64,000 nt of DNA from Scytonema sp. NUACC26 (GTDB lineage: Bacteria > Cyanobacteriota > Cyanobacteriia > Cyanobacteriales > Nostocaceae). Made by a program: the position numbers and the translations under genes. Below, piece by piece: positions 15,029 to 50,391 of this stretch. Below the pieces are notes generated by a model. That model was not told the DNA's origin, did not search any database, and saw only the letters and a program-made list of their open reading frames with translations. Position 1 is the first letter of the stretch; each line of letters starts with the position of its first letter. The stretch covers positions 1 through 64,000 of the forward strand of contig NZ_BAACAP010000234.1 of the NCBI RefSeq assembly GCF_045865695.1, written 5' to 3'.

Positions 15029-15104
15029 TGAAAGTGAGCTCATTGGATAGAGCGATCGACTCATAATCGATTGGTTGCAGGTTCGATTCCTGCACTTTCC
15101 ACCA
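15029..15104 (+). tRNA. tRNA-Met(CAT)-like gene with genomically encoded CCA. Deviates from consensus (U1-C72 mismatch, G8), so it may be a variant or pseudo-tRNA.
   Basis: Manual fold: acceptor tgaaagt/actttcc (6 of 7 bp), D-arm gctc-attggata-gagc, anticodon stem atcga/tcgat with loop ctCATaa, variable tggtt, T-arm gcagg-ttcgatt-cctgc, discriminator a, then cca. Confidence 0.45.
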
Positions 15105-20253: not shown

Positions 20254-21618
20254 ATGAGAATTAAGCAAATTTCCGTCAGAGGCTTATTCGGAATTTTCGA
20301 TCATGTGATTCCATTGAACATGGATGAACGCATCACTATCATTCATGGTCCAAATGGGTTTGGTAAAACTGCAATATTAAGAATTTTAAATAGTTTTTTT
20401 AACTCTCGATATGCAGAATTAAGAACTATCGCGTTTAGAAGTTTTCGAGTAGAGTTTAATAATAGTAATGTTATTGAAATTATAAAAAATTCTGATAATG
20501 AGAAAGGCGAACCCAGAAATAATCTTGTTTTTTATTTCTATCATCCTAATTCAGATATACTTTCTTTTTCTCCAAGACCAATTAAGATTCGTACTGACTT
20601 AGACATTCCTATTAGTAGTATTTTAGATGAATTGATACCAGGATTAGAACGTATAAGTCCAAGAAAATGGTTATATATTCCTACTGAAGAAACACTTTCT
20701 TTAGAAGAAGTTATAGAGCGTTTTGAAAATTTATTGCCCTCTGATTTTAAATTGCAAGAATCACGAGAAGAGCCTGAGTGGCTAGAAAAATTAAAGAGCA
20801 ATATTCATGTGCGATTAATTGAATCGCAACGCTTGCTTAACTTTGTTCCTAACCGTTCTTCCAGAAGAAATCTGACAACACCTTCAATGTTGTCAACTGT
20901 ATCTGCCTATTCTGATGAACTTGCCAAGCTGATGCAAGATAAATTTAAGGAGTACGGTACAATATCTCAATCTCTCGATCGAACTTTTCCCGTAAGAGTG
21001 GTGAAGCAACAACCAGTTTCAGATTTAACAGATGAACAGCTTCGTCATCAACTAAACAACCTTGAAGAGACTCGCTCTCATCTTATAGAAGTAGGTTTGT
21101 TAGATAAAGATGAAGATTCAGAATTTCAAATTCAGCCTCAAGATATCGATGAAAGCACTAAAAATGCTTTGTCAGTATACGTTGAAGATGTTGAAAAAAA
21201 GCTGAGTGTTTTTGTTGAAATAGCTGACAAGATTGAGTTGTTAAGGACAATTATCAATAACAAATTTGCTTATTCCTACAAAAAGATAAGCTTTAGTAAG
21301 GATAAGGGATTCGTTTTTACAACACATAACTCTCCACTATCTAATTTAAAAACTCTTTCATCAACAGATTTATCATCTGGCGAACAACATGAGTTAGTGC
21401 TTCTCTACGAACTGCTATTTAAAGTCCAACCTAACTCTCTAGTCTTAATTGATGAACCCGAACTATCTCTTCATGTAGGATGGCAAATACAGTTTTTAAA
21501 AGATTTACAAGAAATTATAAAGCTCACAGATGTAGATGTTCTAATGGCTACTCATTCACCAGATATCATTCAAGATCGCTGGGATTTAACAGTTGAACTC
21601 AAAGGGTTAGAAAAGTGA
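20254..21618 (+). CDS. ABC-type / RecF-SMC-like AAA ATPase (AAA_15/AAA_21 family), resembling the AriA ATPase of the PARIS defense system.
   Basis: Walker A GPNGFGKT, signature LSSGEQ, Walker B LVLIDEPELSLH, H-loop MATHSP. A long insertion lies between Walker A and the signature motif. Confidence 0.85.
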   Translation: MRIKQISVRGLFGIFDHVIPLNMDERITIIHGPNGFGKTAILRILNSFFNSRYAELRTIAFRSFRVEFNNSNVIEIIKNSDNEKGEPRNNLVFYFYHPNSDILSFSPRPIKIRTDLDIPISSILDELIPGLERISPRKWLYIPTEETLSLEEVIERFENLLPSDFKLQESREEPEWLEKLKSNIHVRLIESQRLLNFVPNRSSRRNLTTPSMLSTVSAYSDELAKLMQDKFKEYGTISQSLDRTFPVRVVKQQPVSDLTDEQLRHQLNNLEETRSHLIEVGLLDKDEDSEFQIQPQDIDESTKNALSVYVEDVEKKLSVFVEIADKIELLRTIINNKFAYSYKKISFSKDKGFVFTTHNSPLSNLKTLSSTDLSSGEQHELVLLYELLFKVQPNSLVLIDEPELSLHVGWQIQFLKDLQEIIKLTDVDVLMATHSPDIIQDRWDLTVELKGLEK

Positions 21619-22481
21619 GAGAGTTTCTGACGATTGACCGGGAAGCCAACCAAATTCGATTGCGGCGGAGTACTTTTTCAGGAACTTTTTTATTAGTGGA
21701 AGGTAGTTCCGACAAAACTTTCTACGAGCGTTTTATTGACAAAGCAGCTTGTCAATTAGCCAGCGTTTCGGGAAAACCTTCAAGTAAGCTGCGTGCGATC
21801 GCTGTTTTAGAAATTTTAGAAAAATCAACTTTCCAAGGAATTCTAGCTATTATTGATGCAGACTTTGAGCGCCTTGAAACTTTAACATACACCAGTCCTA
21901 ATCTGTTTCGCACCGACACTCACGATCTTGAAACTATGCTAATCAACTCACCAGCACTTAACAAAGTAGTTGCTGAATTTGGCTCTGAAGAGAAAATAGC
22001 TCAGTTTAATCGAGAGATAAGATTAGCATTGCTTGAAACTGGAATGTCAGTAGGTTATCTGCGTTGGCTTTCTCAGTGTGATGGGTTGAACCTAACCTTT
22101 GAGGGTATTACATTCAGCAAATTCATTGATGAGCAAACTCTACAGATTGATGAGCTTAAACTGATTCGAGAAGTGAAAAATAAATCTCAAGCCTTTTCCT
22201 TGAAAGATGAAGATCTGCAACAACGGCTCATGAGCCAAAAAAACAAAAGTCACGATTCTTGGCAAATCTGCTGCGGTCACGATCTAGTGCAACTTCTGTC
22301 ACTCGGCTTACGCAGAGCGATTGGCTCTAACAAAGTTGCTGATGTTGAACCTAACAGTCTTGAGCGTAATTTGCGGCTTGCCTATGAAGAAGTTTACTTC
22401 TGTAAGACACAGCTTTACCTAGATGTTCGCATATGGGAAAACAATAATCAACCGTTTAGGGTTCTCCGCAACGAAGTTTAA
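21615..22481 (+). CDS. DUF4435 / Toprim-like (OLD-family-type) nuclease-domain protein, an AriB-like partner of the upstream ATPase. GTG start overlapping the upstream stop (GTGA).
   Basis: Toprim-like conserved acidic residues: LLVEGSSDKTFYERF (Glu) and ILAIIDADFERLE (DxD). Size and gene coupling match the two-gene ATPase plus DUF4435 arrangement. Confidence 0.65.
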   Translation: MREFLTIDREANQIRLRRSTFSGTFLLVEGSSDKTFYERFIDKAACQLASVSGKPSSKLRAIAVLEILEKSTFQGILAIIDADFERLETLTYTSPNLFRTDTHDLETMLINSPALNKVVAEFGSEEKIAQFNREIRLALLETGMSVGYLRWLSQCDGLNLTFEGITFSKFIDEQTLQIDELKLIREVKNKSQAFSLKDEDLQQRLMSQKNKSHDSWQICCGHDLVQLLSLGLRRAIGSNKVADVEPNSLERNLRLAYEEVYFCKTQLYLDVRIWENNNQPFRVLRNEV

Positions 22482-22591
22482 CGATGCATATATTCCGTTT
22501 GTTAATATTTACCTTTTTTTGGAAGCACCTTAATTTTTTACTAGTAGCTGGGAACTATATCACTGTAGTCTTTTACAGTGGTGAGTCAGCT

Positions 22592-23848
22592 ATGACGTTT
22601 AAAATTCTTAGCTTAGATGGTGGTGGAATCCGTGGTGTAGTTTCGCTACAAATGCTACAAGAGGTGGAACGTGAAATCTGGGAAACTTATAAATTAGAGT
22701 TGCATCAATACTTTGACATGATTGCTGGTACTTCCACTGGTTCAATTATCGCTGCTGGGTTGGCAAAGGGCTTAAATACAAAACAACTTCTTGAGCTATA
22801 CAGAAACAATGCCAAGGACATCTTTCCTTACCCGAAGACAGTATTTGGAAAAGCTTGGCAAAAGGTCAGAAGTATATTTTTTCCCAAATATGCTCATGAT
22901 GGATTAGAGCAAGCACTTTCACAAAAAGGTGCTTTGGGCGATACAAAAATTTGTGACATTTCCCAAACTCTATTGTTAATTCTTGCTTATGATATGCGTT
23001 ATCGCAACACAACTTTTTTTACCAATTTCCATCCCGATTTGGGACTACGCTGGTACGATGAACTTCCACTAACAGATATATGTATTAGTTCCGCATCAGC
23101 ACCTACTTTCTTCCCACCACGTGAATTGAAAGCATTTGATGAAAAGAAGTTTGGTAAATGGTCATTTCCCCATATTGATGGTGGGGTTTGTGCTAATAAT
23201 CCATCTTTAGCCGCAATTAGCCAAGCTTTAAAGATAAGCCGCAATCCTAAAATCTCTGTAGAAGAGAAGCAAAAATATAACTTAGAGAATCTCAAACTAG
23301 AAAATATTTCTGTACTTTCTATTGGTACGGGTAGAAGCGCAAATCCTTATGAATACGAACAAATCAAAAGATGGACTTCATTGAGTTGGGTAGCACGACT
23401 TGTGGATGTGTTCATGGAGCCGACAGGTGAAATAAATGCTACCATCTGTCAAAATATTATCGGAGGTTTTGAGTCGGGACGTTACCTTCGACTAGACTTT
23501 GATTTGAATGAAAGATATAAAGTTCTAGTTAACGAGGATGATAAAACCGCTCGTTCTCTGATTGGAAAAAAGGAGAAACGAAAAAATAAGTATTTAGTGG
23601 AAACTAAGTATTCATTTGAAACTGTTAATGAAGAGATGGATAATTCCACATCAACAAATATTGAGACTTTAATTGCAGCGGCTCAAGCCTTTATTAACTC
23701 TGGTCTGATTTATGATTCTAGAGTATACGGCAAAGGACCTAAAGTCAAAAATGCAATTACGGAGTTTATTGCTAACAATCCTGTTGCTCGCAATACTACA
23801 GACCAGTTTCAGGAACTATCAAGCATTGAGCCATTAATTCACACATAA
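22592..23848 (+). CDS. Patatin-like phospholipase with an approximately 200-aa uncharacterised C-terminal domain. The ORF is open from 22484, but the ATG at 22592 has an SD-like GGTGAG.
   Basis: Oxyanion GGGIRG (LDGGGIRGVV), nucleophile elbow GTSTGS, catalytic DGG (IDGGVCANNP). Confidence 0.9.
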   Translation: MTFKILSLDGGGIRGVVSLQMLQEVEREIWETYKLELHQYFDMIAGTSTGSIIAAGLAKGLNTKQLLELYRNNAKDIFPYPKTVFGKAWQKVRSIFFPKYAHDGLEQALSQKGALGDTKICDISQTLLLILAYDMRYRNTTFFTNFHPDLGLRWYDELPLTDICISSASAPTFFPPRELKAFDEKKFGKWSFPHIDGGVCANNPSLAAISQALKISRNPKISVEEKQKYNLENLKLENISVLSIGTGRSANPYEYEQIKRWTSLSWVARLVDVFMEPTGEINATICQNIIGGFESGRYLRLDFDLNERYKVLVNEDDKTARSLIGKKEKRKNKYLVETKYSFETVNEEMDNSTSTNIETLIAAAQAFINSGLIYDSRVYGKGPKVKNAITEFIANNPVARNTTDQFQELSSIEPLIHT

Positions 23849-24084: not shown

Positions 24085-27000
24085 TCAATAACTGTCAAAA
24101 GGTGAAATTGAACCAGCAGAGCAAGAAGCAGGGTTAAATAACGGAGTATGAGGGAGCGCAGAAGGTACAATAGCTACTAAAACTACATTCCCTTTAGTAT
24201 CAACTACCCATCCTTGGGCTTCTACAATTGGAGACGAATTGACAAAATCTACTTTTTGTGTATTTCTCTGTGTTGCGACAGTCGTGTTTCGGATATCTGT
24301 AACATTATTCTCTCCCTCCGCCTTCAACGTTACCCAATTTGCCATCACTGCATCACCCATCAACGGTTCTGTAGGGCTAGATGATATTCCTCCACGTCCT
24401 GTCACAATCATAGAACTTTTTCTTTGATTTCCATCTCCACAGCTAGTAGCAACTTGCTGAGAAGCATCAACTAAATTTATGGGAAGTTCCACCAATCCGC
24501 CACTAGGGTCAACATCAGGTCTATTAATATTTACCTGACCGCTTAAATTAGGGCTTGTCTGAGAAATTGCCGTAATATCATTTGTTTGTAAGAGTTGAGG
24601 ATCGAGTTTGGTTGGCTCATTCGTTCCCAATATACTCACTAAGTCGGCGCGATCGCGAAGAATCATACCAAAAATAGCAGTAGCGTTGATATTAATTTTT
24701 CCACCCAAACCATTGAATGCATTGGCAACTACATCGCTATTTTCCTTTGGAACAGCAACTATGAAACCGTTGTTAGCATTGATAGTTATATTTCCACCAT
24801 TACCATTTTTACCAGCAATAGCCGATATCTGACCGTTGCGACGCATGAGTAATAATTTTTGCACGTCGATGGTAATATTTCCACCTTGACTAGATGCTGT
24901 ATTGGCAAATATGCCAGTAGGAGAATTTGCAGCAACCGAAGTCTGATTCAAGCTAGGTGTACTACCTGAAATAATCAGGCGATCGGCTTTGTTGATGTTA
25001 ATATTACCTGCATCACCATTTCCAGAAGCATTGGTAATTAATTGTCCGCCACTAGTGAGTTCTACAGTCTTTGCCTCAACAGTGATATTACCACCTCTGA
25101 ATGCATTTCCACTTTCTGCCCTTATATTTGCTGCATCTGATACTAGTAAAGTCCCAGTAGGAACCATAATGCTAATATCACCTGCTTCATCTCTAGCATA
25201 AGTTGTGCTGTTAGTTTGTAAAATAGATACGGGAGAAAATGTACGACGATTTGGGGCATTTGGAAAAAGTTGGCGACCTGAGATTTCTACTTTATCTGTA
25301 GCATTAATCTCAATCTTACCGGGTTTGCCACCATCAAAAGATTGACTTGTCACTTCTGCACCAGCAGTTATAGAAACAGACCTTCCACTGATTTTAATAT
25401 CACCAGCATTGCCCACATTAGGATTATTTTTTTTAGCTTCTGCCAAACCTACTTCAGTCGTAATCCGGCTATTTTGTACAGATACCAAACCCTGAGAGCC
25501 AATTGTAATATTGGCAGAATTCCCACTAACAAAGCTTTTGGTATTGATGTTGCTATTATTTGCTATGGACACCGATTCTTTACCAAACAGTGATATGTCT
25601 CGCGTACCCGTGACTTCACTAAACGTGGCACTAACAATATAAGCATTATCCAACGAGATCGAACCATTGGCTTTGAGTGATATACCTCCTCCACCTTTTC
25701 CCCCTCGGCGATTATAGGTGGATATGACTTTATTTTCTATATCTGTACCCAGCCCTATTAAAGATATAGAACCACTGGCTTCCACGGAAATATTTCCACT
25801 ACGTCCAAAACCAAAATTACCGATACTGTCGTTTCTATAGTTACTTGCATCCAATGCAGGCTTATCCTCTAGTCTAGGATTCCCACCTGGCTGGATATAA
25901 GCCGGGTTAGTAATGAAAATATCACCTGCTTTTATATTGATATCACCTGCATCACCTCTACCCAAGGTACGGCTCCGAAGGAATCCATCATTAAGTTCAA
26001 CTTTATCTACTGCATTAACTTGAATATTGCCAGATTTCCCACCACCTCTTGAGGATACGGTAGATACTTCCGATCCACCAGTTAGAGAAACAGACCGTCC
26101 ATTGATTTCAATATTACCAGCGTTAGTAACTACAGATGTATTTGTTGGTGGATCTGTATGAGTAAAAATCCTGCTATTTTGTACGATTACAGAACCCTCA
26201 GATTTTACTTTAATATCTCCTGCATTTCCACTCAAAAAGCTAGAGGCATTAATCCTGCTCGCATCCGCCAAAGATAGTCCCTCTTTGCCAAATAGCGATA
26301 TGTCACCTCCTCCCGCAACCTCGCTAAAGGTAGCACTGACAACATAAGCATTTGATAAACTCAGAGAACCGTTGGCTTTGAGCGATATATCTCCTCCGCC
26401 TTTTCCTCCACGGCGATTGTAGGTGGATATGACTTTATTTTGTTGATTGTTCTGTAGATCTTTACCTAGTCCTATTAAAGATATGGAACCATTGGTTTCT
26501 AAGGAGATATTACCACTGCGCCCGGTTCCATAACCATTGAGTCCAGAGTCATTACTGTAATTACCTGCATCTATTGCTGGTTTGTCATCTAGTGTCGATC
26601 TGTTACCAGGATCGGGATAAGCAGGGTTTGCGATCGCAATATCGCCATTCGCTTTAACATTAATGTTACCTGCATCACCACTCCCCAAAGTGCGAGTCTT
26701 CAACCTTCCACCCTTCAATTCCACTGAATTCGCATTAACGTTAATGTCACCAGTATTACCATTCGATCTAGTCCCAGCCACATTTTCAACCAGGCTGTCC
26801 CCATCCATTTTTAATGCTCCAGTAGCGTTAAGCGAAATATTTCCAGTCTCATTTGCCACTTTTGTCAAACCGGGCTTAATTCCAGCAGAAATCTGGCTTC
26901 CTCCAGAAATATCTAAATTACGAGTGGTAATTGCTATACTCCCAACACCTTTATCCATCACATTAACAGAAGCTCGATTGGTGAGAGATACATCTGCTCT

Positions 27001-27777
27001 TTCTACTTCTGAGGGAACGCTTAAGAATAAGTTGCTACCATCAAGATTCAGCCCTACCGTTCCCGATCCATTAACTCCAGCCAACTCAATCCGACCATCT
27101 GCAGCCTGCAACAAACCGCCATCTACACTGACCTTACCACCCACCAGTGCCAAAGTTTTACCCGGTTGCACCTGTAGACCAACAGCTCGAGCGCTTCCAT
27201 CCTTTGACTGGGATTGATTGACAATGCTTCCCGCATTACCTCCAAATTGCAGACCAATAGGAACACTAATTGTTAACAAAGAAGTTGTTTGAGGTGCAGC
27301 CGCGCTAAACTTTGTACCATCTGCAAAATTCAGACTTGTCGCCGTACTTGCAAAGAACGAGCCGCCGATATTCAGCGCTGCGTTTTTGCCAAAAATAATT
27401 CCATTTGGGTTGAGCAAAAATAAGTTAGCTGAACCATTAGTACGAATTAATCCATCAATGTTAGAGATTGACTGACCTGTAACTCGACTGATAATATTTT
27501 GAACATTTACAGAGTTATTAAAGAAAGCAGTGCTACCCGTAGGAACAGAAAACTCTTGAAAACTATGAAACAGGTTACCATTAGCTGGCGTGCCTCCTTC
27601 AATAATTCTGGTGGCACCATCTAATCTAACGGTAGAATTATTGGGCAGAGTAGTATCTGGAGAGATTTGGGCAATGGCATAATTGGTAGAGAAAAAAAAT
27701 GTACTGCTTATCGGTATACCTAGTAACAAAACCCAACGGTTACTCATCAGAGACATTGCGCTCTCCCAGTGCTGCAT
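24085..27777 (-). CDS. Filamentous hemagglutinin-type (TpsA/FhaB-like) giant exoprotein with an N-terminal TPS secretion domain and beta-helical repeats. Contains a tandem duplication of roughly 265 aa.
   Basis: Signal peptide. TPS domain with NPNGIIFG, beta-helix G-rich repeats. Two near-identical segments (..NPAYPDPGNRSTLDDKPAIDAGNY.. and ..NPAYIQPGGNPRLEDKPALDASNY..). No TpsB transporter gene in the window. Confidence 0.85.
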   Translation of the reverse strand: MQHWESAMSLMSNRWVLLLGIPISSTFFFSTNYAIAQISPDTTLPNNSTVRLDGATRIIEGGTPANGNLFHSFQEFSVPTGSTAFFNNSVNVQNIISRVTGQSISNIDGLIRTNGSANLFLLNPNGIIFGKNAALNIGGSFFASTATSLNFADGTKFSAAAPQTTSLLTISVPIGLQFGGNAGSIVNQSQSKDGSARAVGLQVQPGKTLALVGGKVSVDGGLLQAADGRIELAGVNGSGTVGLNLDGSNLFLSVPSEVERADVSLTNRASVNVMDKGVGSIAITTRNLDISGGSQISAGIKPGLTKVANETGNISLNATGALKMDGDSLVENVAGTRSNGNTGDINVNANSVELKGGRLKTRTLGSGDAGNINVKANGDIAIANPAYPDPGNRSTLDDKPAIDAGNYSNDSGLNGYGTGRSGNISLETNGSISLIGLGKDLQNNQQNKVISTYNRRGGKGGGDISLKANGSLSLSNAYVVSATFSEVAGGGDISLFGKEGLSLADASRINASSFLSGNAGDIKVKSEGSVIVQNSRIFTHTDPPTNTSVVTNAGNIEINGRSVSLTGGSEVSTVSSRGGGKSGNIQVNAVDKVELNDGFLRSRTLGRGDAGDINIKAGDIFITNPAYIQPGGNPRLEDKPALDASNYRNDSIGNFGFGRSGNISVEASGSISLIGLGTDIENKVISTYNRRGGKGGGGISLKANGSISLDNAYIVSATFSEVTGTRDISLFGKESVSIANNSNINTKSFVSGNSANITIGSQGLVSVQNSRITTEVGLAEAKKNNPNVGNAGDIKISGRSVSITAGAEVTSQSFDGGKPGKIEINATDKVEISGRQLFPNAPNRRTFSPVSILQTNSTTYARDEAGDISIMVPTGTLLVSDAANIRAESGNAFRGGNITVEAKTVELTSGGQLITNASGNGDAGNININKADRLIISGSTPSLNQTSVAANSPTGIFANTASSQGGNITIDVQKLLLMRRNGQISAIAGKNGNGGNITINANNGFIVAVPKENSDVVANAFNGLGGKININATAIFGMILRDRADLVSILGTNEPTKLDPQLLQTNDITAISQTSPNLSGQVNINRPDVDPSGGLVELPINLVDASQQVATSCGDGNQRKSSMIVTGRGGISSSPTEPLMGDAVMANWVTLKAEGENNVTDIRNTTVATQRNTQKVDFVNSSPIVEAQGWVVDTKGNVVLVAIVPSALPHTPLFNPASCSAGSISPFDSY

Positions 27778-38613: not shown

Positions 38614-39223
38614 TGGTTAATATGACAAAAGTATAAAAACAAGTCATTCATATAGAACTCCTATTTGATTTATGAAATATAAGTAGTAGGGTGGGCAATG
38701 CCCAACGCCACTCCTCTCAACGCGCACAAAGACGCGCACTCCAGGTGGCTCCCCTACAGTACTTAGATTTTTTCACCAATCAGGTAGGATTCCTATATTT
38801 ATACTTTTGCTTTAGAAAAATTAAAATAACCATAGTATTTCTGATGAAAAAATAATCGAGCAATTAAATCTACGTTATTGTACTTAATTTCTTGAATCTT
38901 ATACTTGTCGTTGTGTTATTAATTTTATCTGAAAGAATACTGAATTCACTAATAAAGAGTTACAAGGTTTATTCCGGATAGTTATGGAATTTTATATTAA
39001 ACAAGTAAAATTTTTACTAACGGAAGATAGTATCAAGGAGTGAGGATAAAGGATGGAATTTTGAGAAGTCCCTAAATTTACTTAGGAAAAAAAGAAAGAG
39101 AAGCCGTTAATTTTTCAAATACATGACTGCTCAGTCCCTTCTTCCTTTAATAAAAAGCAAAAAAAATTAAGTATTATTACAAGCTTATCTTGCATCACTT
39201 ATTGTGTAAAAGTGAACTTTTGG

Positions 39224-40108
39224 TTAAGCAAAACGATAATTTTGCGTTTCCCCCATCAGTTCATAGCCCATCGCTTCATACATCCGGGTGCTGAAAGCAT
39301 TATTTTTATCCGCATACAAAAAGCAGTAACGCTGACCGTCATTTAGCAATCTTTGAGTCAGAGCTGCCGTGCAGGTTTTTCCATAGCCTTTCTGGCGATG
39401 TTCTTTTGGAGTGAAGACAATGGAGACTCGAAATCCATTGGCAGTTTGTCCAATTGTGCATCCCATGGAAACGGGTTCGCCATCTTGCCAGAGAAACACA
39501 TGACCGCCATCGATTTGACGAGTTGCCCAAGCCTGACAATCGTTTGGAAGTCTGCCCAAGGCTTCTTCGGAAAAGGCAGCATACCATTGGCTAACGAGAG
39601 AGACATCTGTTTCGGTAGCTTGTCGTAACTGACCTGGTGCCCAGGTGAAGGGGCGAAGCTGTTCTAAGCGGTAGGCACATAGAGTTGTTTCAGGCGTATG
39701 AGGTTGTCCGGCGATTTGTGTCCAGATTTGGGCGAAGCGTTGAGCGATCTCTGGTGGAGCATTTACCATCGACAAAGTGCTATGCCGCTTCAAATGTTCC
39801 GCCAGTAAATCGACTCCGCTCAGATGAGTCAGCATTGAAATGAAAATGGATTTGCCTGAAGGATTTATTGCTACAGCGACGACTTCTTGATTGGACTCTA
39901 AGGTGAGCAGATCGAGGGATTGCTTTAACGGTTCTGGTGGTGTATAAGCGAGTGCATAACAGTGGGATAGGATGGCGTGATGCAACGCTTCGTTACGCAG
40001 TAGGAAATCGCGCACCCGTCGATCAAAACTATAAGCATTCTTATGCTGAATGAGTTCTACGCGATCGCTCACCTTGTTTTTCTCACAAATCAGTGGGTCA
40101 AATAGCAC
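39224..40108 (-). CDS. GNAT family acetyltransferase with an N-terminal domain of unknown function.
   Basis: C-terminal GNAT core RQKGYGKTCTAALTQRLLNDGQRYCFLYADKNNAFSTRMYEAMGY. Confidence 0.7.
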   Translation of the reverse strand: MLFDPLICEKNKVSDRVELIQHKNAYSFDRRVRDFLLRNEALHHAILSHCYALAYTPPEPLKQSLDLLTLESNQEVVAVAINPSGKSIFISMLTHLSGVDLLAEHLKRHSTLSMVNAPPEIAQRFAQIWTQIAGQPHTPETTLCAYRLEQLRPFTWAPGQLRQATETDVSLVSQWYAAFSEEALGRLPNDCQAWATRQIDGGHVFLWQDGEPVSMGCTIGQTANGFRVSIVFTPKEHRQKGYGKTCTAALTQRLLNDGQRYCFLYADKNNAFSTRMYEAMGYELMGETQNYRFA

Positions 40109-40231
40109 TCTTTGATTATTGAACTGTAGGTAGGGCTAAAGCCCACCCTACAGTACTACCCTCTTGCTAACGGGCGAGACGCCCGTTTCACAAGAAATTC
40201 TTGGAGATTTTTTTCTTTGGAAGTCCCTAAG

Positions 40232-41656
40232 CTAAATTTCGACTTCTGAAACTAAAGTAGTCTGAGACTTGGCAGGTAAAACATTTCGCATAATGTCAAC
40301 AATTGACCGACTTCGTGGTTCTCGAACAAAAAGCAAAGGCAGTAGGGCAATTAATCGCAAAACAGCCGAAAGAGCAAACAGTCCGGGTAAACCCCCAATA
40401 ATATTTAGCCCAGCTACAAAGCCACCAAATGCTGAACCTAGACCTCCACAAACTCCAGCAACAGCAGCCGCAATGGCAAAATACTGAGAAGGACGATCGA
40501 GTGGTGCTACTGACATTTGAATATTACTGCTGCATAACTCAATGGCTGCTATGGAACCACCAGTTACTAAATGGATTGTTGGTAACAAGACCCATAGAGA
40601 AACGGAATCGACACCAACAAACAGCCAAAATATTGGTGTTACTGCCATCAAAATTCCAACTAACAGTAAAAGCGGACGGTTTCCTATTCTGTCAGCTAAC
40701 TTACCCCACAACACAAGCAGGACTAAGTTAGCACCTGCTGCTAAACTGGTATAAAGCGTGACTGTATTTAGATCCAACGCTAAATCTCTCATCATATAAA
40801 GATTAAAGAATGGTGCGCTCAAATTGAGTGCAAACGTCCACAGACCTAAGTACAATAGTAATTTGATAAAGTTAACGTCTTTGAAAATACTTGTCTTTTG
40901 AGGTTGACTGTCTTTATTCTCTTGCGGATTGGGTAAAGTTTCAGCATGAGTCACTTGTGGATTCACATCTTGCATCCAAAACTGACATATCAAACTTACT
41001 ATCCCAAGAATGATTCCACCCAACAGCATCACTCCAAAACCTTGAATTGTACCACCAGGCCAAGCGGATATGCCAAAGCCTAGCAACGGTAGACACAATA
41101 AGTTTGTTAGGCTTGCGGTACTATTGCGAAAACCAAAATATCTTCCTCGCAACTGTTTAGGAACTAAAGCTGCCATCCAGCTGAACCAAGCTGAAGAACC
41201 TAAAGCACTTAATACATTAGCAATAAAGATGATACTTAATGTTAGCGTAACTAGTTGATGGTTCTTGGAAGACCCCATCCACGCAATACCTAATAATAAA
41301 ATGAACCATAACAGCCTTGATGGAGCAAAAATGGCTAGCACGTACCAATGACGGCTCTTAGTACGATCTGCAATGAATGCTCCTAGTGGTTGTAAAAAGT
41401 TAACCAGCATGGGAATTGACGATAGCAACCCGATTTCTACTGGTGTTGCACCTAGTTCTAGAAGAAAGTTCACCAGCAAGACACCACTTGTAATGTTGGA
41501 GAAGATAGCAGCTAAGATGCCATCTATCGTGGATGCTGTCAGGCTAGTTCTTATGCCTTGTTTAGAAATTTTTGCGATCGCATTCTTTTTTTGTACTGGT
41601 GTTAAGCTAGGAAGAGGTTCCAGCGCTTCTAAAGTAGCAGAAGATAAATTGTTCAC
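40232..41656 (-). CDS. MFS transporter.
   Basis: 12 to 14 hydrophobic segments, MFS-type loop motifs, 474 aa. Confidence 0.85.
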   Translation of the reverse strand: MNNLSSATLEALEPLPSLTPVQKKNAIAKISKQGIRTSLTASTIDGILAAIFSNITSGVLLVNFLLELGATPVEIGLLSSIPMLVNFLQPLGAFIADRTKSRHWYVLAIFAPSRLLWFILLLGIAWMGSSKNHQLVTLTLSIIFIANVLSALGSSAWFSWMAALVPKQLRGRYFGFRNSTASLTNLLCLPLLGFGISAWPGGTIQGFGVMLLGGIILGIVSLICQFWMQDVNPQVTHAETLPNPQENKDSQPQKTSIFKDVNFIKLLLYLGLWTFALNLSAPFFNLYMMRDLALDLNTVTLYTSLAAGANLVLLVLWGKLADRIGNRPLLLLVGILMAVTPIFWLFVGVDSVSLWVLLPTIHLVTGGSIAAIELCSSNIQMSVAPLDRPSQYFAIAAAVAGVCGGLGSAFGGFVAGLNIIGGLPGLFALSAVLRLIALLPLLFVREPRSRSIVDIMRNVLPAKSQTTLVSEVEI

Positions 41657-42075
41657 TAAAATTAAGTTAATAAGCTACAAAATTAGGTGAGTAAAGACTG
41701 ACCATACCAGTGCTAGAGCTTCTACACTGAAGCTTAGCGCGACCGTCCCCGCTTATGTAACGGTCAGCAGTATGATACATTTTTCAATCTATCGAAACAT
41801 TAACTTAAAGTAAAATTCTTCCAAAGGATGAAATACCATTGTAGATTGTTTATTTTTGTTAAGCTTCTTTGAGGAAGGTTGATGGGATGGCAGTAGTTTT
41901 TATCTGAGAAAAGCACAGGGCACAGGGCAGAAGGGAGGAATAAGTATTGAAGGAGAGATGTGGCTGGAGTCACGGAACTGACAAAAATGTTAGCGCTAAG
42001 AAACTTTAAAAGTTTTTTGCGATTTAGGAATTCAGTGAGACAATCAAACCTAATTCTTTTCAACTCAAGTAAGAC

Positions 42076-42351
42076 ATGGACGAGCGCACAAAAGCTATTC
42101 AAGCCCTCACTGCTCAACGCTGGCGCGTATCGCTGATCCTAAGTGGAGCCATGATGTTAATCTACTTTGGCTTCATTCTGCTGATTGCTTTCAATAAACC
42201 GTTATTGGGTTCATCGATCGTTCCAGGACTCAGTCTTGGTATTTTGTTGGGAGCACTGGTGATTGTCTCAGCATGGATATTAATTTTTCTTTACGTGCGC
42301 TGGGCAAACAATAATTACGATGACAAAATTGCAAGACTGACACGTAAATAA
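42076..42351 (+). CDS. DUF485 inner-membrane protein (YjcH-like), the usual partner of ActP.
   Basis: Two TM helices, sits immediately upstream of the cation/acetate symporter. Confidence 0.7.
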   Translation: MDERTKAIQALTAQRWRVSLILSGAMMLIYFGFILLIAFNKPLLGSSIVPGLSLGILLGALVIVSAWILIFLYVRWANNNYDDKIARLTRK

Positions 42352-42430
42352 AGGCTAGTGGTTTGTCAAACAACCAATAACTCACAATTGTTTAATTCTT
42401 AAATCCAAAATTACAAATCCAACATCAATT

Positions 42431-44005
42431 ATGAATAGTTTGTGGTGTCACCTGCCACTGGCTGAAGTGGATCTTAAAAACCTCGGTCACTTCAACCCAC
42501 TGGCAATATTTTTTTTCTTAGTGTTTGTCGCTAGTTCTCTTGTTATTACTTACTGGGCTGCAAAGCGTACCAACAGCACATCTCACTTCTACACTGCTGG
42601 TGGTAATGTCAGCGGTTTCCAAAATGGGCTGGCTTTAGCAGGAGACTTCATGAGCGCCGCTAGCTTTTTGGGGATTGCTGGACTCGTCGCACTCAATGGC
42701 TTTGATGGTCTTATTTATTCTATCGGCTTTTTGGTGGGTTGGCCGATCCTTATGTTCTTAGTCGCAGAACCTCTGCGTAATTTAGGCAAGTACACCTTTG
42801 CTGATGTGGTGGCTTATCGTTTGCGACAAGCACCAGTGCGAATAGCTGCTGCGATTGGTTCATTAGCAACGATCAGCTTCTACTTAATTGCCCAAATGGT
42901 AGGTGCTGGCGAACTTGTGAAGCTGCTATTTGGGTTTGACTATGAATTAGCTGTTGTCATCGTCGGTTGCGTGATGATGGCTTACGTGATTTTCGGTGGG
43001 ATGATAGCCACAACTTGGGTACAAATTATTAAGGCTATTCTATTGCTGGGTGGAACTATTTTACTCGCCATTTTGGTATTATCAAAATTTGGCTTTAACC
43101 CATTGGTACTTTTTAGCAGTGCAGCTGCTAAATATGGAGCAGGTGTGTTGGCTCCTGGTAAACAAGTTTCCGATCCCTTCGATGCGATCTCTTTGGGAAT
43201 GTCGTTGATGTTTGGGACAGCAGGATTACCCCACATCCTGATGCGGTTCTACACAGTACCCGATGCTAAGTCAGCGCGAATTTCTGTAACATATGCTACA
43301 GCTTTTATTGGTGTTTTTTACCTTCTCACCTTTATTCTTGGCTTTGGAGCGATGGTGCTAGTCGGTCAAGATGCAATCAAGCAAATTGGGACTGGTGGTA
43401 ACATGGCAGCACCAATGCTAGCTGACTTCTTGGGTGGTGATGCCTTTTTAGGCTTTATTGCTGCTGTTTCCTTCGCGACGATTTTGGCGGTTGTTGCGGG
43501 GTTAACTCTTTCGGGTGCAGCGGCATTGTCTCACGATTTGTGGGTGAATGTGGTAAAATCTGGCCATGCTAGCGAGACGGAACAGCTGAAGGTGGCTCGT
43601 TTTGCAACTATGATGTTGGGAGCATTAGCGATATTGTTAGGTATCTTGTTTAAGGGGCAAAACGTTGCTTATATGGTGGGTTTAGCATTTGCGATCGCTG
43701 CCAGTGGAAACTTCCCCGCGTTGCTTTTATCAATGCTTTGGCGACGCTTCACTACCAATGGTGCAGTAGCCAGTATGTTGGTGGGTACTCTCTCCTCTTT
43801 GGTGCTGATTTATTTCTCACCCACAATTCAGGTGACTATCCTCAAGCATGCTTCTGCACCCTTCCCATTGAAAAATCCAGGGTTAATCAGCATTCCTCTG
43901 GCATTTTTGGTAGGTATTGTCGTTTCACTTTTAACTAGCGAACAACAAGCACAGGAAAAATTTGCAGAAGTTGAAAACCGCATTCATATTGGTTTTGACA
44001 ATTAA
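42431..44005 (+). CDS. actP: Cation/acetate symporter ActP (sodium:solute symporter family).
   Basis: SSF-family topology and motifs, DUF485 gene directly upstream, 524 aa. Confidence 0.85.
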
Positions 44006-44322
44006 GGTTAGGCGTTCCTGTTAATATCTCTTTCACTTCAAGACTGTTACAACAATTGAAGGGGAAAGCCCACGAGACTAGGACTCTACGCCGTGCTACG
44101 AGTCTTAGTAATCCTTGAGGCGTGGGATGAACCCAAATCAAATAGGATTGCTATATAAACACAAATTTATTATGATTACAATTCGCGCAAATACGCCAAG
44201 ACGCTATATTTGCGTAATTTTCATGTGACGGAATGATATTTATGCATAAGCTGATTTTGCCTAACGCTATTTAAATACGTAGGTGAATAAATAGCTTAAG
44301 CAGTTCTAGATAACTTCCGATT

Positions 44323-47300
44323 ATGTCCAAGCACGAGTTTCAGCGTAATTTTGCCGTCATTATTGGGATTAATGATTATTCAAATGGCATCCCACCTTTA
44401 GAAACGGCGGTTCCTGATGCTCGCAAACTCGCTGAGATTCTAGAAGATTACAAATATAGCGTGCGGCTTCTTCTAAACCAAGAAGCTTCTCTGGAAGGAC
44501 TAAACCAACTACTTGCTGCTTTTCACGCACAGAAAATTCCTCTTGCTCAAGAAACGATCGCACTCAATGAAAATGATAGGATTGTATTTTACTTTGCCGG
44601 ACACGGGCTTGCTTTAGATGCATTAGAAAATGAAGAAGGTCCGGCTGGCTATCTCGTACCTGCTGAAGCTCGACCCGGTAATATCAATACTTACCTGCAG
44701 ATGCAGAAACTACATGATGCTCTGCTTGCGCTACCTTGCAAACATTTGTTGGTTATCCTTGATTGCTGCTTTGCAGGCGCATTCCGTTGGTCAAGTCACA
44801 AAAGAAATGTCGTGCGTTTGCCAGTTGTCTACCAAGAACGTTACGATCGCTTCATCCAAGACCGAGCTTGGCAAGTCATAGCATCTGCGGCTGACGATGA
44901 GAAGGCTTTGGATTTTGTTGCATCTCGTGGAACTGTAGAACATCACTCTCCTTTTGCTACAGCACTGTTTCAAGCATTACGCGGTGATGCCGATATTTTT
45001 TTACCAGTTCAAGATGGCACACCAACTGGGGATGGAGTCATTACAGCAACAGAACTCTACGTTTATCTGGGGGCGAAATTGGCGACAATGACTCAAAAAC
45101 TCCACAGTCGCCAAACTCCTGGTTTATATCACTTAGCAAAACATGACAACGGGGAATACATTTTTCTAGTTCCCGGTCACAAATTGAACTTACCATCTGC
45201 TCCTCAATTGAATCTTGAGAATAACCCTTATCGAGGTCTAGAATCCTTTGATGAGGCTCATAGCGATTTGTTTTTTGGCAGAAAGCAATTAACACAAGAG
45301 TTGAGTCAAGTGGTTTGCGATCGCCAACTGACGGTAGTCTTAGGAGCTTCAGGAACAGGTAAATCCAGCCTTGTGAAAGCCGGATTATTGCCCTACTTGC
45401 GTAAATCTACTACAGATCAGTGGCATATTATTGACCCAATTCGTCCCGGTATCTCTCCAATAACTGCGCTTTCTCTTGTTCAAAAGCAACTCTCAACCCC
45501 GAAAGAGAAAAAACTGCCACTGCTTGATGTTGTAACTACTTGGTGCAATGCCAATCCTCAAAGCAAACTACTGCTTGCAATCGACCAATTTGAAGAATTA
45601 GTGACCATGTGTCAAAACGATAAGGAGCGATCGCAATTTTTCAAAGAACTGGAACAAGCACTGACTCAACCGCAATTCCATATTGTCATCACATTACGCT
45701 TGGACTTTGAACCACAATTTTTAACGTCTGCTTTTCCCAGTCGTTGGAGGAATGCCCGATTTATGATACCCCCAATGACTCAAAACGAGCTTCGAGAAGT
45801 CATTGAAAAACCAGCAGCAGAACAAGTGCTTTATTTTGAACCACCACAATTGGTAGAGCAATTAATTAATGAAGTGGTTCAGATGCCTGGAGCACTCCCA
45901 CTACTTTCTTTTACTCTGAGCGAACTTTATTTGAAATATTTAAACCGTCGAGGCGATAACCGCGCTCTCACAGAACAAGATTATAACGATTTGGGAGGAG
46001 TTGCTGGCTCTCTTACCCGTAGAGCTACCCAAGAATATGAAAAGTTAGTAAAAATGGATTCAGCTTACGACTACACTATTCGTAAAGTTATGTTGCGAAT
46101 GGTGACTGTAGATGGCGGTGCGATGGCTCGCCGACGAGTCCCTTTGCGCGAATTTGAGTATCCCAATGCAGAAGATAACGAGCGAGTTGAAGAAATTATT
46201 CAACGCTTTACCGATGCTCGATTGATTGTGAGTGGAAAAGAAGTTAATGGGGAACCTTACGTAGAACCAGCTCATGATGCTTTAGTGTTGGGATGGAATC
46301 TTTTACAAAAGTGGAAAGACGATAAGCATCAAAATGAGAGTGTAGTGCTACGCCAACGTCTAACGCTTGCAGCTAATGATTGGTATAACAACGATCGCAA
46401 ATCGGACTATCTCTGGAGTCACGATCCCCGCATTGCCGTGTTAGAAAAAGTCTTAGAATATCCTCCTCAGAAGAACTGGTTGAATCAACTAGAAACAGAA
46501 TTTGTAAAAAGTAGCATTCACAAAAGACAAGATGAACTTGAAGAAGCCAGAGAGCGTTGGCGAATCTCACAAGAACGACAGCAAATTGCTCAGGCTCGCC
46601 TATTAGCAACTCAAGCCCAATTGATACAAAGAGAGGATATTAGTTTATTACAATTGAGTACTTTGCTAGCTGTTGAATCTATGAAACGGTTCAACAAGCT
46701 GGAAATGAGATATCTTTTAGCAGATCAAACCCTACGTCAAGGGTTAGCTTTGCTTCCACGCTCCATCGCTCGTATTAATAAACAGAACCAGCAGAATTAT
46801 ACTTGTTCAAATTCATTAGCTTTTTGTTCTGATGGCAAACATATAGCGATCGCTAATGATGCCATAAGACTGTTAGAAATAAAAAGCGGTCAAGAAGTGG
46901 CTAGTCTGGAGTATGAAAAAAATGTAACTGTTGCTACCTTAAGTCCAGATGGTAACTATGCTGCTACTTACTGTGCTGCTACTTGCGCTCAGAAGGGAGT
47001 CGTCAAAGTTTGGCAGTTAAAAAACCAACAATTAATTGCAGAAATAGTTCGTGCCGAACCCGTACAGTATATTATTTTCAGCCCCAATAGCCAATATATA
47101 CTTATTGTGAGCGGAGGTTTTAGAGGTGTATGGCAATTGACCGATTCTTCAGATGTCATACCTGTAGCATTACCATTGTTAAAATTGCCAGATTTTTCTA
47201 GCGCTCAAGAGCCAATTTCTTTCAGTCCCGATGGCAAATATCTAGCTGAATTTGTTGAAGATAGCCCTGGTTCCGGAGAAGGTAGAAGACAAGTTTGGAA

Positions 47301-48930
47301 ACTTTCTAGTAGGCGGCGAGTTATCAACGAAACAGTAAATTTATCTTCACCTTCTAGCTCTGAAGTCAATTTAGCTGTTTCCGAAAATATCGACGATATA
47401 GCATTTAGTTCAGATGGTCAATTTTTTGCGGCAACAGTGACTCTAACTACTATAAAAGTATGGAAAATTCCTAGTGGTAGAGAAGTTATGACTATGGAGC
47501 ATAATGCATGGATTAATACGATTGCAGTGAGCTTTAATGGTCAGTATATAGCGGTTGGAGACAGAAAAGGAGAAGCAATTGTTTGGGAGGTTCCTCACGG
47601 TTATCAAGTGGCATATATCAAAGATAACCCGACAACTTGGTTGGGTCGTGTTATTTTTAGTCCCGATGGAAATCATTTAGCTACTGTTGGTAAGGGATTT
47701 AATAAAATTGCCAGAGTTTATCACGTGTTTCGCGGTCAAGAAGTTGCCCGCTTGCTTCATGAAAATTATGTTGTCAATATTGCCTTTAGTCGAGATGGTA
47801 AGTATATAGCAACTCAGGAAGATTCCAATCCAGAAAAAGGGTATAGCGATACTGTACGCCTATGGCAAATCGTTGATAACTTTGATGGTAAAATTGCGAT
47901 TGAGCTTGACCTTGAGAACTTTATAAATAGCATCACTACAAGTTCTCGCGGTAAGTATTTGGGGATGACTTGCAGTCAAGCTAGTGGGTTACAAGTTTAT
48001 GATATGGAGCATTATCAGAAGGTAAGATTTATTCATCATGAAGGAGCACATTATGCTGCCTTTAGTACAGATGAAAAATTGGTAGCTACTGTTGGTGAAG
48101 ATCGAACGGTAAAACTTTGGGAGTTAGCCAGCGGTGAGGAATTGCTAGCAATCGAACATAATGCACCCGTTATTGCGATCGCCTTTAGTCAAGATGCAAA
48201 GTTTTTAACTACATTGGTTCACCTGACAACTATATATAGAGACAACATTGAAGTTTTAATTTGTGATGTTATTGTGTGGGACATTACAACTTATCAACAA
48301 GTTGACAAATTAGAAAATATAAAGTTCATCAGCATGAGTCCTGATGGAAATTATTTAGTGATTCTTCCGGAAAATGCAAACTTTTTGGATAAAAATTTAT
48401 TAATTATAAAAGTTGTAGGAAGAAAAGAAGTGACACGGATAACGCTAGATAATGAGGGATTAAGTGAATTTATCCTAAGTACAGATGGAAAGTACTTGGC
48501 TGGTTTTGGCGGATTTTATGGCTCGGATACATCCGTAGATAGTGATGGATTCATCCAAGTGTGGGACTTGTCCGGTGAAGAAGTTTTACCCGTTATAAAA
48601 CTCGGTAGATCGGTAACAAAAGTAGTTTTCAGCCCAGGGAGTCGTTTCTTAGCAGCAGCTGTTGGTGGTGATACTGTAAGAATATGGGATTTAATAAGTA
48701 AGCAAGAAGTGTCACGTATTGAAGTATATGGCGGTATAAATCATATTATTTTTAGCTGGGACAGCGAACATTTAGTGACTGTTAATTGTTTAAACAAAGT
48801 TCAAATCTGGAATTTACAGCCAGAAATTTTAATTGAAGAGGCTTGCAGTCGATTGACTTGCAATCTAACTTTAGAAGAGTGGAATTTGTATTTAGGCGAA
48901 CCTTATCAAAAAACTTGCCCTAATGTCTAG
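44323..48930 (+). CDS. STAND NTPase: N-terminal caspase (peptidase C14) domain, central NACHT-type ATPase and C-terminal WD40/beta-propeller repeats (1535 aa).
   Basis: C14 signature AVIIGINDY, catalytic His (FAGHGLA) and Cys (LVILDCCFAG). NACHT lead-in NNPYRGLESFDEAHSDLFFGRK. Walker A GASGTGKSSLVKAGLLP, Walker B LLLAIDQFEE. Many FSPDGKYLA and VKVWQL repeats. Confidence 0.85.
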   Translation: MSKHEFQRNFAVIIGINDYSNGIPPLETAVPDARKLAEILEDYKYSVRLLLNQEASLEGLNQLLAAFHAQKIPLAQETIALNENDRIVFYFAGHGLALDALENEEGPAGYLVPAEARPGNINTYLQMQKLHDALLALPCKHLLVILDCCFAGAFRWSSHKRNVVRLPVVYQERYDRFIQDRAWQVIASAADDEKALDFVASRGTVEHHSPFATALFQALRGDADIFLPVQDGTPTGDGVITATELYVYLGAKLATMTQKLHSRQTPGLYHLAKHDNGEYIFLVPGHKLNLPSAPQLNLENNPYRGLESFDEAHSDLFFGRKQLTQELSQVVCDRQLTVVLGASGTGKSSLVKAGLLPYLRKSTTDQWHIIDPIRPGISPITALSLVQKQLSTPKEKKLPLLDVVTTWCNANPQSKLLLAIDQFEELVTMCQNDKERSQFFKELEQALTQPQFHIVITLRLDFEPQFLTSAFPSRWRNARFMIPPMTQNELREVIEKPAAEQVLYFEPPQLVEQLINEVVQMPGALPLLSFTLSELYLKYLNRRGDNRALTEQDYNDLGGVAGSLTRRATQEYEKLVKMDSAYDYTIRKVMLRMVTVDGGAMARRRVPLREFEYPNAEDNERVEEIIQRFTDARLIVSGKEVNGEPYVEPAHDALVLGWNLLQKWKDDKHQNESVVLRQRLTLAANDWYNNDRKSDYLWSHDPRIAVLEKVLEYPPQKNWLNQLETEFVKSSIHKRQDELEEARERWRISQERQQIAQARLLATQAQLIQREDISLLQLSTLLAVESMKRFNKLEMRYLLADQTLRQGLALLPRSIARINKQNQQNYTCSNSLAFCSDGKHIAIANDAIRLLEIKSGQEVASLEYEKNVTVATLSPDGNYAATYCAATCAQKGVVKVWQLKNQQLIAEIVRAEPVQYIIFSPNSQYILIVSGGFRGVWQLTDSSDVIPVALPLLKLPDFSSAQEPISFSPDGKYLAEFVEDSPGSGEGRRQVWKLSSRRRVINETVNLSSPSSSEVNLAVSENIDDIAFSSDGQFFAATVTLTTIKVWKIPSGREVMTMEHNAWINTIAVSFNGQYIAVGDRKGEAIVWEVPHGYQVAYIKDNPTTWLGRVIFSPDGNHLATVGKGFNKIARVYHVFRGQEVARLLHENYVVNIAFSRDGKYIATQEDSNPEKGYSDTVRLWQIVDNFDGKIAIELDLENFINSITTSSRGKYLGMTCSQASGLQVYDMEHYQKVRFIHHEGAHYAAFSTDEKLVATVGEDRTVKLWELASGEELLAIEHNAPVIAIAFSQDAKFLTTLVHLTTIYRDNIEVLICDVIVWDITTYQQVDKLENIKFISMSPDGNYLVILPENANFLDKNLLIIKVVGRKEVTRITLDNEGLSEFILSTDGKYLAGFGGFYGSDTSVDSDGFIQVWDLSGEEVLPVIKLGRSVTKVVFSPGSRFLAAAVGGDTVRIWDLISKQEVSRIEVYGGINHIIFSWDSEHLVTVNCLNKVQIWNLQPEILIEEACSRLTCNLTLEEWNLYLGEPYQKTCPNV

Positions 48931-48933
48931 GAA

Positions 48934-49040
48934 ATGGGGATTGGGGATTGGGGAACTCGGAGTCCCCTCCTTGTTGAGGGGCAATGGGGATTGGGGATTG
49001 GCGATTGGCGATTGGCGATTGGCGATTGGCGATTGAGTTT
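48934..49040. repeat. Heptamer tandem repeats (GGGGATT / GGCGATT).
   Basis: gggattggggattgggg...ggggattggggattggcgattggcgattggcgattggcgattggcgattg. Confidence 0.85.
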
Positions 49041-49382
49041 TGGAGCGAAGCAACTTTACCTTTTTAGCTTGTTGACTAACTCCCCTGGCAAAAGCCTAGG
49101 GGATTCTTCAGCGTTGAATTAGATTTGGTTGTCCACAGTTTATAAGGTGGCCCCATTTTTTCTTGCCCAATTCTAGCCCTTGCCTTAAGGACGGCAGAAA
49201 CACTTCGCCACGCTTCGTGTTTCACCCTCAAGGGTTTTCAGCCGTTTTTCCTATAATATTTACTTAAGTAAGTCAGCAAGAATAGACAGAATTGTGTAAA
49301 GATGTGTAAATAAGGGTGAAATCTTTACTGATGACCAATGACAAATGACGAAGACTGACTAGTTAACTTTAATTGTGCTGAC

Positions 49383-49875: not shown

Positions 49876-50391
49876 CTATTTTTTCTTTGAAATCACCTCA
49901 AAATTGAAAGAAGCAATACAGCGATCGTTTACGTAAATTTCTATAGTATGCTTACCAGTCGGATCGCCGGGAGTAATAGTCCAAAAATTTTCAATCGTTC
50001 CTTTTTTTGCTTGCTGTATGCGTTTTGTGACTGCTTCTGTCCCGTTGGTTGATAGTGAAAAGTCTTCTCCGCTATCTGTACTCCATGTCTCTGGTACTTT
50101 AGGTAATTTGATAACTTCACGCCATGTCACCGCACCGTGGTAGTTTTTGAGATGAATTCGCCATCCGTATTTGTTTCCTTCTTTTAATATCACCTTACTT
50201 GTAGGTATAAAGGTAGCTTTACGACTATTGTTATCTCTTAAAACTCCAAACTCCGCTTTATTGACAGTAATAGATTTAACATTCGCTGGTTGCGAATAGA
50301 CTATATCGTTAATTGTAAAAGAAGCAATACTCCAAGGAATTAATCCGCAAGTGGTTAGTACAATAAAGTAAGACCAATGTTTTCTTTGCAT
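49876..50391 (-). CDS. Hypothetical secreted protein with an N-terminal signal peptide.
   Basis: ORF plus hydrophobic N-terminus. No recognisable motif. Confidence 0.45.
   Translation of the reverse strand: MQRKHWSYFIVLTTCGLIPWSIASFTINDIVYSQPANVKSITVNKAEFGVLRDNNSRKATFIPTSKVILKEGNKYGWRIHLKNYHGAVTWREVIKLPKVPETWSTDSGEDFSLSTNGTEAVTKRIQQAKKGTIENFWTITPGDPTGKHTIEIYVNDRCIASFNFEVISKKK

Follow-up and report, generated by a model that had tools for sequence, protein, structure and literature searches.

Proteins that join a caspase-like protease to a STAND nucleoside triphosphatase (NTPase) and a repeat sensor have been described in several bacterial settings. Within the STAND class, nSTAND1 has been defined as a clade of its own, distinct from NACHT, and its combination with caspase effectors has already been reported (Kaur et al. 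2021, PMC8195603). The commonest accessory domains of cyanobacterial orthocaspases are WD40 (83 of 473) and AAA_16 (60) (PMC8283722), and gasdermin-associated Peptidase C14/CHAT proteases fused to NACHT, WD40 or TPR domains have been put forward as a direct link between the recognition of a ligand and cleavage (bioRxiv 10.1101/2021.06.07.447441). The caspase-nSTAND1-WD40 family itself is known from computational descriptions (Kaur et al. 2021, orthocaspase surveys and a 2026 STAND survey); we found no experimental study of any such protein in the literature. Here we analyzed a gene of this family located at positions 44323 to 48930 of a 64,000-nucleotide stretch (the window; contig NZ_BAACAP010000234.1) of Scytonema sp. 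NUACC26 (Scytonema hankhaensis, Nostocales, Scytonemataceae). We propose, with a probability of roughly 60%, that its product is a stand-alone, cytoplasmic protease switch that resembles an apoptosome in a single chain and is ligand-gated, ATP-dependent and self-oligomerising.

The gene is a single uninterrupted reading frame of 1535 aa that begins with an ATG, as established from the open reading frame list and the translation. The product is a member of the Peptidase C14 ('true' orthocaspase type), nSTAND1 and WD40 propeller proteins, and its parts follow each other in the order Peptidase C14 domain, nSTAND1 NTPase, helical linker and 15-blade WD40 region. A reading of the DNA made earlier from the letters alone (the sequence-only reading) had described this frame as a fusion of a caspase, a P-loop STAND NTPase and a C-terminal WD40 propeller, and Pfam searches bore this out; all the motifs that it had quoted were also found. 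In RefSeq the protein is named 'caspase family protein' [Scytonema sp. NUACC26] (WP_407895943.1), and the identical UniRef entry is named 'nSTAND1 domain-containing NTPase'. The features of the coding sequence are the following:

44323..48930, plus strand: coding sequence of the 1535-aa caspase-nSTAND1-WD40 protein, 100% identical to WP_407895943.1 / GAA6621244.1
44344..45192, plus strand: Peptidase C14 (orthocaspase/metacaspase-like) domain, aa 8-290
44587..44613, plus strand: catalytic His motif FYFAGHGLA (H94), aa 89-97, aligning with SGHG of Yca1 and AtMC4
44758..44778, plus strand: catalytic Cys motif LDCCFAG (C149), aa 146-152, aligning with DSCHSG of Yca1 and AtMC4
45226..46404, plus strand: nSTAND1 NTPase module (nucleotide-binding domain, helical domain, winged helix), aa 302-694
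45343..45369, plus strand: Walker A, GASGTGKSS, aa 341-349; G341, G344, G346, K347, S348 and S349 invariant (61 homologs)
45568..45597, plus strand: Walker B, LLLAIDQFEE, aa 416-425; D421, Q422 and E425 invariant, E424 at least 90% conserved
45688..45708, plus strand: putative sensor-1 region, ITLRLDF (R459); R459, F462 and E463 invariant
45883..45912, plus strand: GxP-type motif of the helical domain, MPGALPLLSF; P522, L525, L527, L528, S529 and F530 invariant
46264..46284, plus strand: winged-helix His motif, EPAHDAL (H651); E648, P649, A650 and H651 invariant
46405..46812, plus strand: long helical linker, aa 695-830, with helices 722-771, 773-789 and 795-821 in the AlphaFold2 (AF2) model
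46813..48837, plus strand: WD40 region of about 15 blades, the presumed sensor (PF00400, blade anchors, AF2 model)
48835..48927, plus strand: C-terminal tail EEACSRLTCNLTLEEWNLYLGEPYQKTCPNV, conserved in orthologs, modelled with low confidence

The N-terminal domain matched the Pfam family Peptidase_C14 over aa 8-223 (60-65 bits, cutoff 21.4) and has the p20-like fold of the caspase-hemoglobinase class. When the caspase and NTPase parts were each searched as a single sequence against PDB sequences, no useful match emerged, and a 13-sequence profile was required to reach metacaspase structures from the caspase domain. Against Yca1 (4f6o) and AtMC4 (6w8s), H94 and C149 occupy the canonical dyad positions, which makes the protein a 'true' and not a 'pseudo' orthocaspase. 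When 61 sequences were aligned, the residues Y90-F91-A92-G93-H94-G95 of the His motif and D147, C148, C149, F150 and G152 of the Cys motif were invariant, so that the catalytic dyad, predicted to be intact from the letters alone, is indeed so. The Asp of the metacaspase DxC motif is tied to P1 specificity. Because D147 sits at the position of this metacaspase S1-pocket Asp, a preference for Arg or Lys at P1 is suggested by the alignment. The strict conservation of the dyad and of the S1 Asp argues for real catalysis.

The window encodes a second caspase homolog at 1993-4191 (minus strand), a protein of 732 aa with Peptidase_C14 and DUF4384 domains. This homolog had been described as lacking the catalytic Cys, and we found that the His has been lost as well (FSGYG for SGHG, LDTSYY for DxCxxG). 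Its N-terminus (MKRRKFLQRIG...) resembles a Tat-type signal, and the product is probably an exported pseudo-orthocaspase.

The central module matched nSTAND1 (PF20703) with 346-350 bits (cutoff 27.1) over model positions 1-378 of 379. NACHT (PF05729) reached 20.0 bits, under its gathering score of 26.7 and more than 300 bits behind nSTAND1, and NB-ARC gave zero matches in the profile search of the 1535-aa protein even at E<=10. The NACHT label that the sequence-only reading had attached to this domain must thus be replaced, and because nSTAND1 is a clade apart from NACHT the protein is not a bNACHT. The more general assignment to the P-loop STAND-class NTPases stands, with a full nSTAND1 match and intact Walker A and B motifs. 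The earlier reading had staked its case on the central domain not being a non-NACHT ATPase devoid of STAND features: the domain did prove to be non-NACHT, but it is clearly STAND, with the combination of nucleotide-binding domain, helical domain and winged helix that defines the class. Functions were assigned to the STAND motifs by position. Accordingly, ITLRLDF, which follows Walker B, is a candidate sensor 1, and H651, which the AF2 model places with the rest of EPAHDAL at the end of a beta hairpin (E635-639/E645-649), lies in the position of the NB-ARC 'MHD' His and may be its equivalent. Across 61-117 homologs the motifs GASGTGKSS, DQFEE, R459, PGALPLLSF and EPAHDAL showed little or no variation.

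Between the NTPase and the propeller no transmembrane (TM) segment was found in the linker, in which the maximum Kyte-Doolittle value (19-residue window) was 0.71. This distinguishes the NUACC26 ortholog group from most of its family, since 84 of 118 homologs have a TM-like segment that reaches a Kyte-Doolittle value of at least 1.6 over 19 residues in this interval. The hydrophobic segment of these relatives suggests a membrane-spanning helix that would place the WD40 sensor outside the cytoplasm, and such a membrane topology has been proposed for some members in a review (PMC7475262). Most relatives probably span the membrane and carry the propeller outside the cell, but this arrangement was rejected for the NUACC26 protein, which is predicted to be wholly cytoplasmic because the TM-like segment is absent. 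In a crude neighbor-joining tree the query, five orthologs and the next clade (P0007-P0011) formed an 11-member clade without TM segments.

The C-terminal half matched WD40 (PF00400) with 111.8 bits (cutoff 27), and many propeller models matched under their own cutoffs between aa ~840 and ~1510. We counted 15 degenerate blade anchors across the C-terminal 700 residues, whereas SPDG occurs exactly 4 times and KVW exactly 2 times in the protein; the many FSPDGxYLA and VKVWxL repeats reported from the sequence are therefore real as degenerate anchors but not as exact copies. In the AF2 model, aa 821-1535 fold entirely as beta structure, with approximately 59 strands (predicted local distance difference test score 74.7, predicted template modelling score 0.50). 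The best Foldseek match was 2YMU, a 'highly repetitive propeller' (E 4e-30), and Apaf-1 (3shf) ranked 8th, among generic tandem double propellers and for a model whose predicted template modelling score is only 0.50. The region is probably a tandem double beta-propeller. Its blades resemble each other less than those of any other protein among the top matches, with a mean pairwise identity of 0.25-0.29 versus a family median of 0.49 and values of up to 0.71, and no DNA repeat with the period of a blade was found in the WD40 region. The low blade identity and the lack of such a repeat rule out a recently shuffled or hyper-repetitive propeller. The tail after the propeller is also a family trait, and the pattern C..RL...L......R..C..P is present in the family consensus.

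To place the protein in its family we searched exhaustively with aa 1-700. At E<=1e-30 the search returned 10,074 cluster representatives (clusters at 50% identity), and at E<=1e-10 it returned 30,650. Essentially all of the top 150 matches aligned over nearly the full 700 residues, and in the best 120 database matches the His motif was present in 120, the Cys motif in 117 and Walker A in 118, at matching positions. The caspase-nSTAND1-WD40 proteins of filamentous cyanobacteria have the same architecture and motif set as the NUACC26 protein, and the architecture is very common in cyanobacteria, already annotated and ordinary. Three modest details are new for the ortholog group: the missing TM-like segment, the unusually individualised blades and, as described below, an evolutionary rate like that of housekeeping neighbours.

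The protein was also compared with better-known systems. Apaf-1 belongs to the AP-ATPase/NB-ARC clade and recruits its protease through a CARD, whereas the NUACC26 NTPase is nSTAND1 and its protease is fused in cis; this protease is metacaspase/paracaspase-like (DxC motif) and not an Asp-specific caspase as with Apaf-1. The Avs/bNACHT proteins fall in a different STAND clade, have TPR-like sensors instead of a WD40 sensor, and carry nuclease, Sir2 or similar effectors instead of a protease; the NUACC26 protein had no PADLOC Avs match and its gene has no defence-island context. Both Apaf-1 and Avs resemble it in working by analogy only. The gasdermin-associated proteases are similar in that a Peptidase C14/CHAT protease is joined to repeat and NTPase domains, but there is no adjacent gasdermin gene: 9 of the 10 neighbours have other Pfam identities and the tenth encodes a 171-aa PM0630-family protein. 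The EACC1-caspase systems (Kaur et al. 2020), in which nSTAND1 occurs sometimes (PMC8195603), have a related caspase domain (NCBIfam NF047832, 63.8 bits), but this score is far under the 140-bit cutoff of the model. Membership in the EACC1 two-gene system was rejected, as neither a conserved small or EACC1-like upstream open reading frame nor a 5' single-TM gene was found. Because one defining feature of each was looked for and was absent, the protein lies outside the NACHT/bNACHT, NB-ARC/AP-ATPase and PADLOC Avs families and outside the EACC1 two-gene and gasdermin-protease systems.

The proposed switch starts from the domain identities, the intact and conserved catalytic and NTPase motifs, the absence of a membrane segment, the purifying selection described below and the solo gene, all of which are observed. 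From other STAND clades we infer, by analogy, autoinhibition, ligand gating, oligomerisation, activation by proximity and the death outcome, with the P1 preference taken from the metacaspase alignment, and a working cycle could then run as follows. At rest the protein would be a monomer with ADP in the nSTAND1 module, held closed by the propellers. A ligand, probably a protein, would bind the 15-blade WD40 region and lift the autoinhibition, and nucleotide exchange would allow the NTPase modules to oligomerise. The oligomer would gather the N-terminal caspase-like domains, which would become active by proximity, and the H94/C149 protease would cut cellular targets, probably after Arg or Lys. 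The proposed end point is growth arrest or cell death.

We then compared the locus between genomes. Four orthologs share the gene, its ATG and its first codons: those of S. hofmannii PCC 7110, Scytonema UIC 10036 and Tolypothrix bouteillei at 86% identity, and that of NUACC21 at 70%. One further feature comes from this comparison:

44210..44322, plus strand: conserved upstream region, presumed promoter and 5' leader, which aligns in all four orthologs

This segment of ~110-130 bp ahead of the ATG stays linked to the gene even though the upstream neighbour varies between genomes, and it presumably has promoter function. A promoter consensus scan gave one 9-of-12 match at 44148-44176 and a number of matches no higher than in shuffled sequence, and no RNA family match was found near the gene. 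The upstream neighbours are a GGDEF response regulator, a GNAT protein, an MFS transporter and a sodium:solute symporter; those downstream are Usp, the small PM0630-family protein, an SDR, a beta carbonic anhydrase, a metallophosphoesterase and a gamma-glutamyltranspeptidase. The PM0630-family neighbour (49876-50391, 171 aa) has no Pfam match of its own, and its orthologs carry PF27186. All the flanking genes are ordinary metabolic, transport or signalling genes, and none of the 10 gave a meaningful PADLOC match.

The order of the locus in the orthologs is GGDEF, MFS, a variable slot, the gene, Usp, PM0630 (missing in NUACC21) and SDR. In NUACC26 the slot (38614-44322) holds the GNAT (39224-40108) and sodium:solute symporter (42431-44005) genes, in PCC 7110 a dCache-HAMP-cyclase-globin gene, an MscS-cNMP channel and a Gln-synthetase fragment, and in the T. 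bouteillei-type genome no extra genes. The spacer after the gene (48931-49382) is 452 bp long in NUACC26 versus 14 bp in the orthologs and contains heptamer tandem repeats (TGGGGAT x2.9, TGGCGAT x7.3, ATGACAA x2.7), which we take to be short tandemly repeated repetitive (STRR-type) sequences, typical of heterocystous cyanobacteria. By the Nei-Gojobori method, dN/dS (omega) was 0.11-0.20 in every domain, propeller included. The WD40 region (0.13-0.20) did not evolve faster than the nucleotide-binding oligomerisation module (0.11-0.18), so the sensor is not accelerated. Over the whole gene dS was ~0.5-1.2 and omega 0.13-0.15, both indistinguishable from those of the MFS, Usp, SDR, gamma-glutamyltranspeptidase and GGDEF regulator genes (omega 0.11-0.19). 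Purifying selection acts on all parts of the protein. The GC content of the gene equals that of its flanks and, with dS matching them as well, recent horizontal transfer has no support.

Beyond these orthologs the next most similar proteins fall to 46% identity and lie in other genomic contexts. The NUACC26 gene is solo and syntenic, whereas this nearest paralog clade occurs in a three-gene array, common to Scytonema sp. UIC 10036 and Stigonema ocellatum (loci L009, 1744-14335, and L012, 91-13522), in which a C14-DUF7379 gene (~1,100 aa) is followed by two tandem caspase-nSTAND1-WD40 genes. When more distant Nostocales were entered from the PM0630 gene, the flanking block was scrambled and the locus was not conserved, and only six clusters exceed 60% identity to the query. 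The earlier reading would have been refuted by a conserved core gene across Nostocales; conservation of this kind exists within the narrow Scytonema/Tolypothrix bouteillei clade but not beyond it. The stable synteny, the neighbour-like rates and the scrambled distant block therefore indicate that the gene was inherited vertically and is a lineage-specific paralog within a large, expanded family. It is not a core gene of the Nostocales as a whole, and it is not a cassette carried on an island.

The sensor-switch-effector logic of Avs/bNACHT anti-phage proteins, which the sequence-only reading had assigned to the protein, is a fair analogy, but the NTPase is not NACHT, no PADLOC Avs model matched and there is no defence context. 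An anti-phage receptor of this type, whose propellers would recognise a conserved protein of the phage and whose caspase would bring about abortive infection, is a tentative alternative that we hold doubtful. In its favour, the protein shares the tripartite logic of the Avs proteins and resembles Avs3 and Avs4 in fold much as it does other STANDs. A counter-invader role has been predicted for nSTAND1 proteins that carry a peptidase effector (PMC8195603), STAND surveys class caspase-like effectors as defence-type, and other members of the family adjoin transposases, a ParE toxin gene and CHAT-TPR genes. However, PADLOC returned only a generic 'caspase' match (41 bits) and a weak mad8 match for the 1535-aa protein itself, none of the 10 flanking genes is defence-related and the nearest defence locus, PARIS-like (20254-23848), lies ~20 kb away. 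The chromosomal position is also unchanged in four genomes, dS and omega equal those of the housekeeping neighbours with no acceleration of the WD40 sensor, the blades are individualised and not recently shuffled, and the base composition is that of the flanks. A defence role is unsupported for the NUACC26 copy.

Much of the same evidence would suit a domesticated sensor that responds to an endogenous signal and controls programmed death of the host cell, or proteolysis under stress or in development (necridium formation is one example), although we consider this unlikely. Regulated cell death, necridia included, is documented in filamentous cyanobacteria (PMC9415839). Such a sensor would parallel the sensing of cytochrome c by Apaf-1, and it agrees with the stable synteny, the ordinary purifying selection in all domains and the predicted cytoplasmic sensor; the 15 individually diverged blades, conserved between orthologs, suggest a fixed ligand. 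We know of no assigned executioner of cyanobacterial regulated cell death. Against this reading, orthologs occur only in a narrow clade (the six clusters above), whereas an executioner with a general role in development would be expected in a wider range of taxa, and the flanking genes are not developmental. A more specific form of the idea seems quite improbable: a bacterial 'apoptosome' that has been domesticated to sense an endogenous ligand in the cytoplasm and that kills cells in Scytonema development or stress (such as necridia for filament breakage and hormogonium release) and not in response to phage. Just as poor are the odds that we give to a non-lethal regulatory protease or scaffold, in which an ATP-dependent assembly processes specific proteins or the caspase domain only binds. 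Many bacterial STANDs are regulators and not death switches, inactive caspase domains are common as binding modules in related conflict systems, and the pseudo-orthocaspase in the same window shows that inactive forms exist; but both the dyad and the S1 Asp are kept strictly in this protein and in nearly all of the best 120 homologs. The one-chain protease switch remains our preferred reading.

The window has several other features. The PARIS-like locus (20254-23848, plus strand) consists of three tightly packed genes, a PARIS-like pair and a patatin, and no other clear defence locus was seen in the window. Its first gene encodes an AAA_15/AAA_21 ATPase that matched PADLOC AriA over its full length (2e-21) and another AriA model (3e-24), the second, which overlaps the first by 4 bp, encodes a DUF4435 protein matching AriB (1e-23), and the third encodes a patatin-like phospholipase matching the PADLOC 'Effector Phospholipase' model (3e-67). 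A Uma2-family putative restriction endonuclease (10716-11381, plus strand) matched the PADLOC candidate PDC-S17 (2.6e-47). Another WD40 propeller (aa ~515-820) forms the C-terminal part of an 831-aa fusion with a GNAT acetyltransferase (aa ~125-205) at 11481-13976 (minus strand). The RtcB RNA ligase encoded at 6023-7903 (minus strand) is split by an intein (Intein_splicing PF14890, aa 85-310), and two adjacent tRNA genes lie at 14949-15101 (plus strand; Rfam RF00005, 55 and 60 bits). The product of 24085-27777 (minus strand; 1230 aa), which has an N-terminal two-partner secretion (TPS) domain and no further Pfam match, is probably a secreted filamentous exoprotein.

The NUACC26 gene itself adds little, as it is already deposited, correctly named and one of a family with more than 10,000 relatives. 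It is however a practical test case: the protein is predicted to be soluble, is encoded by a single gene under steady purifying selection, and should be easier to express and study than relatives with a membrane-like segment. Among bacterial proteins, those of the caspase-STAND-WD40 class come closest to the animal apoptosome, and knowing which ligands they sense and which substrates they cut would help to explain how programmed cell death arose and how cells are sacrificed in multicellular cyanobacteria.

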